This document shows, piece by piece, positions 56,980 through 59,898 of a DNA stretch of 64,000 bases. Origin of the DNA: a virus. Its lineage: Duplodnaviria; Heunggongvirae; Uroviricota; Caudoviricetes. Every line of letters starts with the position of its first letter. Positions within the stretch are counted from its first letter, which is position 1. The stretch lies in the IMG/VR virus record IMGVR_UViG_3300035698_025354; one strand, 5' to 3'. Both the position numbers and the translations under genes were made by a program. Below the pieces are notes generated by a model. It did no database searches. It was given only the letters and a program-made list of their open reading frames with translations, and was not told the origin of the DNA.

Positions 56980-59898
56980 ATGACGAAGGCGGCAAATGAA
57001 TTAACTATGGACAGCCGCAAGTTCTTGGGTGCTCTCAATGATTCTGCACAAGCTAAGACTGCATTCTTTGAAAATAAAATTAGCGAAATGGGGAAGGCCG
57101 CTAATAAGAATTGGTCCTTAACTGCTCTCAGATCTAATGATCTTGTATTTGAAGACACAGATACAAATGAATACTTCTTAGCGGAGCATTCTAAAGACGG
57201 CAGAAAACACAACATCTCGAATATTCAAAAAATAAAAATCGTCGAAGAAGAAAAAGGCGGAATATTTGAGGAATCATGCTTAAAATTGGTTAGTGCTATC
57301 GAAGAAAACGACCAAAAAGGTATGCACGCAGCTTTCAATCGCATGAAATCCCAGCGATTCTCTGGACGGGTAATACCATATTCTGGCTACGTCAAATGTC
57401 GTGATAATGTCCTTAGAAAAATAAACATTTCAAATGGAAATGCTATTGAAGAAGACATTAAAACACAACTTGTTTCAACAATTGTTGAAAGCCTTAGAGA
57501 TAGAGTCATTGTTGAAAATGGTCAAGTCGTTGCGGGATCTTTTAATGATGGTGAAGAAGTTAAACTTCCATTGACAAAATGGGCTGCTAGAAAATTAATT
57601 GCCCGCAGAATGGCTGAGTCAGCCAAAGATGCATATTGGTCAGTAAGTTTCCAAAATGGCATTAAAAATATCGCCAACATGGTTTCAGAAGGAAAAATAG
57701 AAAAGGCAGTGAAAGAATTAACTCCATTCTTAGAAGAAATGGAAGAATTCACACTGTTAACAAAAGCAAATACACAAGCGTTAATTGAAAATGCACTAGC
57801 AGCTAGTGGTGTCTTCAATCAGAATCTATGTAATGATACTGCAACATTATTCCATAGAACAAATATGCGAATCAGCAGAGATAAAATTGTCAAAGAATGG
57901 AAAAACATTGCTAAAAAAGCAGAACACCCAGTTCTTGCTGAAAACACTCAAATTCTAGCAGAAGCAACTAATTTTGAAGCTGCTTATGATAAGTTTTTAA
58001 AGTTAATCTTTGAAACAATTTCTAACAGAGAAGTAACTGCTGAAGCTCTTGCCACCACATTAGAAGTTCTAAAAAATAAGACTCCTAAAATTAAAGAGTC
58101 GCATGAATTATCTAGTAAACTTGATGGTTTAATAAATCGTTTAAAAGATCCAACGTTTGATGATGCTACAATTTATGAGGCAGAAGATCTCATTGCGACT
58201 ATTCAAGAAGAATTGTCAGCAAATGAAACACTTGGTGACTTTGATGAAATACCAGGTACTTCGGATGATGGATTATCAGATCTTGCTGCAGATGGTGATG
58301 CTTCTGGTGCTCCGACAATTAATATTAATTCTCCTCTTATCCAAATTGGTGGGAGTAGTGGTGGCGGGGAAGAAGATCTTGTTGCCCAAGATGATCTTGG
58401 TGACATAGGCGGGGAAGAAGAACTTGACCTAGGTGGCGAAGATGATCTCGGTGACATGGGTGAAGAATTAGACGGTGGCGAAGATGATGACCTTGCCGCA
58501 TTACTCGGTGGAGGCGGCCTTGGAGAAAGTAAGAATAAAAAAGATGGTATTTCTGAATCTCGACCAGTTCATTATGAAATGAAAGATGACTGTGACACTG
58601 ATACAGCGTGTGATGACGATGAGGATGAAATTGAAGAATCATCTGACCCATACTCCATGCTTGAATCAGCGTCTGATGTCAGTTATGAACTGATGCGTGA
58701 TTATGGTTCACAAGTAATCACAGATAATGGTCAACTACGATTTGTTGCTAATATCATGCATCAACTTGCCGAAGAAAATGATCTGCAGGGGCAAGATCTT
58801 GTAGAGAATTTGGAAAGTATGGCACAAGCTAGCATTAAAGCAGCTGGATTAAGAATCCCAGAAGGACGTTTGTCTAAAGCTGTTGAAGAAGCTGTTGCTC
58901 TATTTGAATCTGATAAGCCATTTGAAGGTGCGGTACCTCTATTTGGTGGTGATGATGACTCTGGTGATGACGATGACGATGACGATGACGATGACGATGA
59001 CGATGACGATGACGATGACGATGACGAAGGTGTCGCAGAAGATCAAATGCACGGTCCCAGAATTCCTAAACGAGGTCTTTCTAAACAATCTGTTTCTACA
59101 AAAATTGAATGGAAAAATCAGCAGAATGATGGCATTTTAGGGGAAATGGCTGGGGTTAAATTCATTTTTGATCATTCCGAAGGATATGATCCGGCTATCT
59201 TAAGCGAAGATGGGTCCATTGAAGTTCCAATCCCAAATCACCTGTATGATAGTGCCTTTGCTTCTGCTAATATGGTTGACGGTGATTCTGAGCCATTTAT
59301 TGATTGGCTTGGTGAATCAATTGAACAATTGAGACCAATTTCTAATAAAGAAGATAGTGAATTGCATGAAGCAATGGCTAAAATTACTACTGGTCCAGAT
59401 GGTCAGCTCGAAGTTGAAGTGTCCGATGATGTTTCACTTGGAGATGAAGAAGGTGGACTTGGTGTCGATGAATTTGGAGATGAGGAAGAATTTGGTGGTG
59501 AAGGAGAGTTCGTCGATGATGGTGCCGGAATGGAACCAGTCGATTCTTTAGAAGTTCCAGGAGATGAAGAAGAATTTGGTCCAGATGATGAAGATACTAT
59601 GCCCAATTATGATGATGAGGGTATGGATGATATGGACGAAGTTCCTCAAACTCCACAAGTTCCTCAAGCCCCCGGTGAAGAAGATGAGGAAGAAGAAATG
59701 CCTTTTGAAGATAAGGACATTACAGAACCTCAAAGTTCAAAATATTCTAAGCATGTTAAAGATAATAAACGTGACATGCCTACGCCAAAAATGCCAAAGA
59801 AATCTGATGATAAATTAGATGAAATTGGTCCAGAATTGAAGACAGATGATGGGACTGGTACAAAGCCTCCTACAGCAAAATCGATGAGTAATAAGTAA
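56980..59898 (+). CDS. hyper-acidic prohead core/scaffold-like or internal head protein with D20 tract
   Basis: About 973 aa from the ATG at 56980 (AGGAG 8 nt upstream; earlier in-frame ATGs at 56959 and 56974). Helical N-terminal third, then Asp/Glu-rich repeats including an uninterrupted run of 20 Asp. Lies between the portal and the protease. Confidence 0.5.
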   Translation: MTKAANELTMDSRKFLGALNDSAQAKTAFFENKISEMGKAANKNWSLTALRSNDLVFEDTDTNEYFLAEHSKDGRKHNISNIQKIKIVEEEKGGIFEESCLKLVSAIEENDQKGMHAAFNRMKSQRFSGRVIPYSGYVKCRDNVLRKINISNGNAIEEDIKTQLVSTIVESLRDRVIVENGQVVAGSFNDGEEVKLPLTKWAARKLIARRMAESAKDAYWSVSFQNGIKNIANMVSEGKIEKAVKELTPFLEEMEEFTLLTKANTQALIENALAASGVFNQNLCNDTATLFHRTNMRISRDKIVKEWKNIAKKAEHPVLAENTQILAEATNFEAAYDKFLKLIFETISNREVTAEALATTLEVLKNKTPKIKESHELSSKLDGLINRLKDPTFDDATIYEAEDLIATIQEELSANETLGDFDEIPGTSDDGLSDLAADGDASGAPTININSPLIQIGGSSGGGEEDLVAQDDLGDIGGEEELDLGGEDDLGDMGEELDGGEDDDLAALLGGGGLGESKNKKDGISESRPVHYEMKDDCDTDTACDDDEDEIEESSDPYSMLESASDVSYELMRDYGSQVITDNGQLRFVANIMHQLAEENDLQGQDLVENLESMAQASIKAAGLRIPEGRLSKAVEEAVALFESDKPFEGAVPLFGGDDDSGDDDDDDDDDDDDDDDDDDDDEGVAEDQMHGPRIPKRGLSKQSVSTKIEWKNQQNDGILGEMAGVKFIFDHSEGYDPAILSEDGSIEVPIPNHLYDSAFASANMVDGDSEPFIDWLGESIEQLRPISNKEDSELHEAMAKITTGPDGQLEVEVSDDVSLGDEEGGLGVDEFGDEEEFGGEGEFVDDGAGMEPVDSLEVPGDEEEFGPDDEDTMPNYDDEGMDDMDEVPQTPQVPQAPGEEDEEEEMPFEDKDITEPQSSKYSKHVKDNKRDMPTPKMPKKSDDKLDEIGPELKTDDGTGTKPPTAKSMSNK
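58966..59025 (+). repeat. (GATGAC)10 perfect hexanucleotide microsatellite encoding Asp20
   Basis: Counted directly from the sequence. Confidence 0.9.

Follow-up and report, generated by a model that had tools for sequence, protein, structure and literature searches.

We analysed a 64,000-nucleotide stretch of DNA from a virus of the class Caudoviricetes (Duplodnaviria; Heunggongvirae; Uroviricota; IMG/VR record IMGVR_UViG_3300035698_025354), hereafter the window, and found that the gene lying between its portal and prohead protease genes, here called gene X, encodes a 972-residue hyper-acidic protein that belongs to a widespread family without annotation or name. The capsid shell assembles on a protein body, the prohead core. 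To our knowledge, the T4-type inner core is poorly understood outside T4, and we know of no recognizable homologues of gp67 and gp68 in most distant T4-like phages. We propose, with a confidence slightly above even, that protein X is a protease-processed structural component of the prohead core, an analogue of gp67 and gp68 of about 1,000 residues, in uncultured large T4-type myophages.

The genomic position of gene X points to this role. Searches against Pfam and PHROGs gave the order TerL, portal, X, S77 protease, scaffold candidate and major capsid protein (MCP). The corresponding T4 order is 20-67-68-21-22-23, which places gene X in the gp67/gp68 slot, between portal (20) and protease (21). 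The order helicase-...-TerL-portal-X-protease-scaffold-MCP was kept in every related locus long enough to show it, so the head-module position noted in a first-pass annotation of this DNA is real. Its conservation, together with the match to the T4 67/68 slot, makes a prohead-core or internal-protein role the best inference. The first-pass annotation had suggested a core or scaffold protein or an ejected internal protein; that suggestion stands as far as position goes, but it gains nothing from homology to gp67, gp68 or gp22. The adjacent S77 protease is presumed to be the enzyme that processes protein X, and the scaffold candidate, an unassigned helical open reading frame (ORF) in the gp22 slot, carries many conserved phi-x-E sites.

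The longest reading of the gene X frame (56959..59898) has 979 residues. The in-frame ATG at 56980, which yields 972 residues plus stop, is the likely start, because it is preceded by an AGGAG sequence at a distance of 8 nt and gives an N terminus as long as those of homologues. The boundaries 56980-59898 annotated earlier were thus right, with 972 residues in place of "~975". Protein X contains 11.9% Asp and 11.6% Glu, with an isoelectric point (pI) of 4.18 and a net charge of -136, and is encoded in a window with a G+C content of 35.8%. Its hyper-acidic character and its run of 20 aspartates encoded by (GATGAC)10 (Asp20), both described in the earlier annotation, were confirmed.

We derived the architecture of the protein from an alignment of 43 full-length family members (Table 1). 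Three hypervariable linkers, mostly acidic, hold the charge, and neither their sequence nor their length is conserved. Negative charge that is conserved on linker sequence that is not indicates that selection acts on composition. In relatives, linker 1 is Ala/Pro-rich in some members, linker 2 ranges from 0 to 129 residues with net charges from -30 to +4, and linker 3 is repeat-rich. Within the hydrophobic motif between linkers 0 and 1, N450, P452, L453, G457 and G458 are invariant, and the pair F30-E31 near the N terminus of the protein is nearly so. AlphaFold2 models built from shallow input alignments were poor, with pLDDT values of 61.6 for the N domain and 50.2 for the C region. Linker 2 of three relatives (L024, L026 and L033; residues ~690-800) holds an insertion of about 100 residues that is not low-complexity (…YDKEYVKVGTKTGRQLAQKYGYDWDEIVKGGYIVLARDIYNAMETGNLVDLFARR…), which suggests that this linker tolerates the insertion of a whole domain.

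Table 1. Head-module features of the window and parts of protein X (residue numbers refer to protein X; ↓ marks a candidate or predicted cleavage point)
Feature	Window position	Strand	Residues	Remarks
Gene X	56980..59898	+	1-972	Hyper-acidic; member of an unnamed family of 857-1276-aa proteins
AGGAG ribosome-binding site	56967..56971	+		8 nt upstream of ATG 56980; read from sequence
N domain	56980..58239	+	1-420	Most conserved part; net charge -1 at the family median; long helices after a beta segment
Linker 0			421-444	Short, variable
Hydrophobic motif ININSPLIQIGG	58318..58353	+	447-458	Nearly invariant; between two variable linkers
Linker 1	58354..58548	+	459-523	Variable, Gly/Asp/Glu/Leu-rich; contains an imperfect 24-nt repeat
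Conserved island [LVI]SE↓SRPxHYEMK (here SE↓SRPVHYEMK, E526), then acidic segment ending IEE↓S (E553)	58552..58638	+	524-535, then 536-553	
M domain	58639..58929	+	554-650	Moderately conserved, probably helical
Linker 2	58930..59031	+	651-684	Hypervariable; net charge -24 here
Perfect (GATGAC)10 repeat	58966..59025	+	663-682	Encodes Asp663-Asp682; within linker 2
Motif VAE687↓DQ[FY]KGPR	59032..59046 (V-A-E-D-Q)	+	from 685	End of linker 2; E687 invariant; candidate prohead-protease site
C domain	59047..59430	+	690-817	Conserved; mixed beta/alpha in low-confidence model
Linker 3	59431..59697	+	818-906	Acidic in every member, net charge -17 to -102; -38 here
Motif [LMV][FA]E910↓DKDIT (here P-F-E910↓D-K-D-I-T)	from 59701	+	908-915	E910 invariant
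C-terminal tail	to 59895	+	911-972	Conserved, mixed-charge, Lys/Pro-rich
TerL	52959-54920			Pfam/PHROGs
Portal, T4 gp20-type	54976-56841	+		Upstream neighbour of gene X; PF07230 (Portal_T4), E 2.2e-71
Prohead core serine protease, T4 gp21-type, S77	59912-60652	+		Peptidase_S77, E 5e-18; phrog_207, E 3e-40
Scaffold candidate, helical ORF in gp22 slot	60701-61441 (feature list 60722..61441, 239 aa)	+		246 aa
MCP, gp23-type	61488-63101 (feature list 61494..63101)	+		E 3e-79

The family is large. A word-indexed search found seven metagenomic relatives with the N-terminal 428 residues and eight with the C-terminal 289 residues, and 62 syntenic loci, on contigs that reach 231-408 kb, came from a pattern scan of IMG/VR. 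An exhaustive hidden Markov model search of 1.84 billion representative proteins returned 166 clusters at 50% identity, and E was below 1e-30 for 147 of these. All members come from uncultured sources and are without annotation or name, and the long ones have 857-1276 residues. Every one of the 98 long representatives is acidic, with a net charge between -37 and -161 and an Asp plus Glu content of 14.5-26%. Between related loci, identity is 75-85% for the MCP and 40-66% for protein X. The best match of the window MCP among deposited phages (38.7% identity) is to a 595-kb uncultured phage. In that genome (LR756511.1; L001:8346-10196), a 616-aa protein, possibly a very remote relative of protein X, is encoded directly upstream of the protease: an hhalign comparison with the X family gave a weak match in the same N-terminal region (probability 13%, E 0.002), which we treat as a lead only. 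Jumbo phages of an aquatic lineage named "moraphages" were described in a 2025 study (PMC12619734); they have T4-like structural genes and a UvsW helicase, and their predicted hosts are Bacteroidota. Going by that description alone, the clade of the window might correspond to this lineage or lie close to it.

We then considered where protein X might be cut. T4 gp21 cleaves after Glu in L/I-X-E, fragmenting gp22, gp67 and gp68 and removing 65 residues from gp23 (PMC9026906, PMC9958956, PMC5694885). In a multiple alignment, the column of the gp23 Glu65 cleavage falls on Glu92 of the window MCP, within S-T-I-F-E↓D-Q-T-T (nt 61755-61769), and the site is kept as [IL]-[LF]-E↓D-Q in 25 of 26 aligned MCPs of the clade; maturation of the window MCP at I-F-E↓D-Q is therefore predicted. 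Two sites in protein X resemble it. E687 (V/F/M-A-E↓D-Q) and E910 (L/M/V-F/A-E↓D-K/N-D) are 100% conserved, have an aliphatic residue at P3 and Asp at P1′, and each directly follow a hypervariable acidic linker; E687 shares P1-P2′ (E↓DQ) with the predicted MCP site. The pattern phi-x-E-D-Q occurs four times in the 21,930 residues of the ORFs of the window, and the MCP and protein X account for two of these occurrences. Further conserved Glu residues with an aliphatic P3 stand at positions 400, 410, 526 and 553 of protein X, and E526 and E553 are candidate protease sites. From these motifs we infer that the S77 protease would cleave protein X after conserved phi-x-E. Measured against composition-matched shuffles, phi-x-E motifs were enriched 2.07-fold in the N domain of X (26 observed versus 12.1 ± 2.9 expected), 2.24-fold in the scaffold candidate, 1.87-fold in the protease and 1.24-fold in the MCP, and were depleted in linker 3 of X (0.54-fold).

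Related motifs occur elsewhere in the window. Just ahead of the head-closure gene, an unassigned 235-aa ORF (13427-14134, plus strand) has I-T-E↓D-Q at residues 37-41. Because this is the rare motif of the sites predicted in the MCP and protein X, the ORF may encode another protease-trimmed virion protein. Protein X (…LVSTIVE↓SLRD, 57454-57501, residues 159-174) and the scaffold ORF (…LVDSIIE↓SLVG, 60755-60802, residues 19-34) both contain a conserved I-x-E↓S-L motif, which may be a common protease site or a docking motif; the likeness is not statistically significant (hhalign probability 0.5%).

A working model of the core role can be outlined on this basis. Three domains, the near-neutral N domain and two smaller ones, would make the specific contacts within the core, with the hydrophobic motif ININSPLIQIGG and the C-terminal tail as candidate docking elements. 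The three disordered, polyanionic linkers would act as space-filling, mutually repelling spacers, and their sequence and length could drift by in-frame repeat slippage while their acidity stays. Once the shell is complete, the adjacent S77 protease would cut after Glu at phi-x-E sites, including VAE687↓DQ and FE910↓DKD, and so part the domains from the linkers, whereupon the pieces would leave or be displaced by incoming DNA. A more elaborate version, which we regard as distinctly unlikely, treats X as a "polyprotein" of three gp67-like modules, each made of a folded domain and a polyanionic tail with an invariant phi-x-E↓D cleavage site at its end; long polyanionic peptides freed by the prohead protease would be retained in the capsid or co-ejected as tunable DNA-like polyanions. 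Such peptides could fix the volume or the pressure inside a very large capsid, or could serve as decoys for host DNA-binding defences, and rapid in-frame slippage would tune their length at the level of the population. Linker 3 would then be released largely intact, because it is depleted in internal sites.

Several results weigh against a core role for protein X. The enrichment of phi-x-E is weak evidence, because the motif is short and common in helical proteins and the protease itself is enriched 1.87-fold. The profile comparison with T4 gp67, gp68 and gp22 that the first-pass annotation had proposed was run with hhalign and was negative, with probabilities of at most 3%: the X family gave 2.4% (single sequence) and 2.3% (15-sequence alignment) against gp67, 0.9% against gp68 and 1.4% against gp22. 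Protein X matched neither the gp67 profiles PF17634 and phrog_1064, even at E<=10, nor any PHROG, that of gp68 (phrog_1049) included, and hhalign comparisons of its family with the scaffold and protease families of the window gave probabilities of at most 1%, of which the scaffold result is the adverse one. A Foldseek search of the AlphaFold2 models against BFVD and PDB returned no match with E<=0.001, and TM scores were below 0.2. In Flavobacterium phage immuto, the portal-to-protease slot holds two non-acidic proteins, to which the X family showed hhalign probabilities below 1%; position is thus suggestive and not proof of a core location. Used as queries against 50,697 deposited phage genomes in nucleotide and tblastn searches, the region, X itself and two divergent members of its family had no match, and no cultured relative of X was found among these genomes. 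Scans of X and its sub-regions against Pfam, PHROGs and NCBIfam up to E=10 gave nothing meaningful, and a PDB sequence-profile search gave zero matches. As Pfam, PHROGs, NCBIfam, hhalign, PDB and Foldseek were all empty or negative, we claim no family membership for protein X. A likeness seen by eye between LVSAIEENDQKGMHAAFNRMKSQR of X and LIEAIKSNDLVAARKLFAEAMAAR of gp67 was confirmed by no statistic, and we dropped it as evidence.

The main rival reading, which the same head-module position would also suit, is an internal head protein that is kept, whole or processed, in the mature capsid and ejected with the DNA, as are T4 IPI-III and Alt and the ejection proteins of phiKZ and SPN3US. Internal or ejected proteins trimmed by a protease are indeed present in T4 and in giant phages (PMC9026906, PMC5694885), a simple spacer would not need conserved domains as large as N, M and C, and the strong, conserved negative charge fits a DNA-like polyanion; by mimicking DNA, the polyanionic segments might then titrate host defence proteins that bind DNA. 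In the Pfam, PHROG and PDB sequence searches, however, protein X resembled no known family of anti-defence or ejected proteins, and it had no Pfam match at E<=10 to any family, Ocr and ArdA included. Its acidic segments are disordered, hypervariable, low-complexity linkers with pLDDT below 50, unlike the folded, DNA-shaped charge surface of Ocr. Its conserved Glu sites are spread throughout the protein, whereas those of capsid-targeting propeptides stand near the N terminus only, and a net charge of -136 beside densely packed DNA would presumably be energetically costly. We consider an ejected protein unlikely; it also overlaps in part with a core component, since such a protein would still have to be incorporated through the core. 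The first-pass annotation had further suggested that the acidic half could neutralize the charge of packaged DNA, for which the sign is wrong: a polyanion cannot neutralize DNA.

Non-core accessory roles in the head are rather unlikely in our view, whether as a portal-proximal assembly factor or chaperone, a tape-measure-like size factor for a very large capsid or an external decoration of acidic bristles. Large capsids are likely, given related contigs of 231-408 kb, and may depend on additional factors to set their size; modular domains on long flexible linkers would suit a ruler or a bristle, and no homology constrains the assignment. Yet linker length varies several-fold among relatives whose MCPs are 75-85% identical, which is unfit for a precise ruler. 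The T4-type decoration genes hoc and soc lie elsewhere, the portal-to-protease slot being one of core genes, and an external role would leave the MCP-like conserved Glu motifs unexplained.

We next examined the repeat that encodes Asp20. TRF reported a period of 6, 10.3 copies and a 100% match at 58966..59027. The codons of D663-D682 strictly alternate between GAT and GAC, and the ratio GAT:GAC in the rest of gene X is 76:20; the tract is also the only perfect microsatellite with five or more copies in the 64-kb window. This alternation and uniqueness, far beyond chance, are the signature of unit duplication. TRF also found an imperfect 24-nt repeat in the gene, the EELDLGGEDDLGD stretch (2.9 copies, 70% match, 58388..58462). 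Asp20 is the longest homopolymer seen in the X family; next come D11 among the 98 representatives and, at another position, a run of E18 in L049. Linker 2 of relatives is rich in Asp, Ser, Gly and Glu, often has repeats of its own (for example, SGKPWE modules) and is sometimes almost absent. Across 43 genes, TRF detected tandem repeats with periods of 6-57 in the linkers of nearly all members, among them a perfect 15-nt unit in 8.9 copies in L037 and (GAAGAG)19.8 in L049. The genes of L007 and L008 are 99.97% identical and differ solely by one 9-nt GAAGGCATG unit, and gene pairs that are 97.7-97.9% identical differ in length only by in-frame indels of 3-18 nt inside the linkers.

The earlier description of the tract as slippage-prone is borne out at the level of the family, since in-frame repeats fill the linkers and near-identical genes differ by whole units, but its description as contingency-like is not: because the 6-nt unit lies inside the ORF, a change in copy number adds or removes Asp-Asp and produces no on/off switching, and every indel between close relatives is a multiple of 3. 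It is very improbable that the tract is a phase-variable contingency element or an artefact of sequencing or assembly. A perfect 10-copy microsatellite, the sole one in the window, is admittedly of a kind that mutates fast and can mis-assemble, but slippage of its unit keeps the frame, the corresponding place in relatives is taken by acidic, low-complexity sequence whose length varies greatly, and its 60 bases are shorter than typical reads, with the reading frame intact on both sides. Searches of viral, metagenome (exact flank and protein) and genome contigs returned no near-identical strain with which the length of the tract could be compared. We conclude that Asp20 is a recent, lineage-specific, in-frame expansion of the tolerant linker 2, neutral-looking, and neither a specific functional element nor a phase switch.

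The remainder of the window is that of a myovirus, with a sheath, two tube paralogues, a baseplate, an NAD-dependent ligase, a class II ribonucleotide reductase and a UvsW-like helicase. The adjacent tail-tube paralogues (21448-22047 and 22133-22714, plus strand; phrog_4542) lie downstream of the 956-aa sheath gene (18487-21357). The head-closure (gp14-like) ORF (14089-15099, plus strand) has weak matches to HNH-endonuclease PHROGs in its N-terminal part and may be a fusion or overlap with a homing-endonuclease remnant, and a 1409-aa ORF (33022-37251, plus strand) without a Pfam match has a marginal match to a PHROG family named "head maturation protease" (E 3.8e-4). Directly after the capsid gene, a perfect hairpin with a 15-bp stem and T runs on both strands (63128-63162) is likely a strong bidirectional terminator that closes the head operon. 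The window has 17 copies of the T4 late-promoter octamer TATAAATA against 9.3 expected, a count reached by none of 100 shuffles, but no copy upstream of gene X. In related loci, insertions seem to have hit the head module often: 11 of them have an extra 2.5-5.6 kb between the protease and scaffold genes (L004, L015, L024, L026, L033, L038, L040, L051, L052, L063 and L065), and others have extra DNA between TerL and the portal. The 2060-aa T4-type portal gene of L003 (L003:450-6632) matches Intein_splicing and LAGLIDADG and appears to be interrupted by one or more inteins.

What is new here is a large, widespread and wholly unannotated family in the gp67/gp68 slot, comprising no fewer than 166 clusters at 50% identity. 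By itself, the Asp20 tract is ordinary, a recent in-frame microsatellite expansion in a tolerant linker. If protein X is a core component, it would show how larger phages have modified the T4 head plan, using a single giant modular protein in place of several small ones; it would also provide a natural example of selection on charge, not sequence, in a viral assembly protein, and would supply predicted protease sites open to direct testing.

Comparison with known systems places these features in context. Simple-sequence contingency loci of bacteria and phages share with gene X a perfect short repeat prone to slipped-strand changes in copy number, but the unit in X is a multiple of three within a coding region and alters the length of a linker, not the state of expression. 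T4 IPI-III have a short N-terminal targeting peptide ending in L/I-X-E and a basic mature protein, whereas X is acidic and much larger. The inner-body and ejection proteins of phiKZ, 201phi2-1 and SPN3US are, like X, large proteins of large-genome myophages, and theirs are internal to the head. A protease related to T4 gp21 cuts these giant-phage inner proteins C-terminal to Glu in a motif of three residues (PMC5694885); in phiKZ, 201phi2-1 and SPN3US, however, the motifs are A/S/G-X-E and the proteins are not notably acidic or repeat-rich, and we found no similarity of X to them in sequence or fold.

T4 gp22 and gp68 and other T4-type scaffolds share with X a location in the head module and many phi-x-E motifs, and the scaffolds are comparably acidic, with 22% Asp plus Glu in T4 gp22 and 23% in the immuto scaffold (the 413-aa protein annotated "DNA polymerase phi-like"), against 23.5% in X. 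A gp22-type scaffold, however, is a single coiled-coil-like rod, whereas X combines folded domains with long disordered linkers, and the gp22 slot of the window is already filled by the separate 246-aa helical protein. T4 gp67 ("PIP", PF17634, phrog_1064) belongs to the core and is cleaved by gp21 at L/I-X-E (PMC9026906, PMC9958956). Like X, it is encoded directly downstream of the portal and upstream of a gp21-type protease. It is a single module of 80 residues and X has 972 residues in three domains and three linkers; the acidic tail of gp67 follows its LIE site, whereas the conserved Glu sites of X follow the acidic linkers. The two share a design principle only: gp67 has a helical N-terminal part and a polyacidic, low-complexity tail with 44% Asp plus Glu, and the length of this tail varies by indels of ED units among T4-type phages, in proteins of 76-85 residues whose first 50 residues are essentially identical (P0162-P0281), much as the linkers of the X family vary. 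By this analogy, for which we claim no homology, X plausibly works like gp67.

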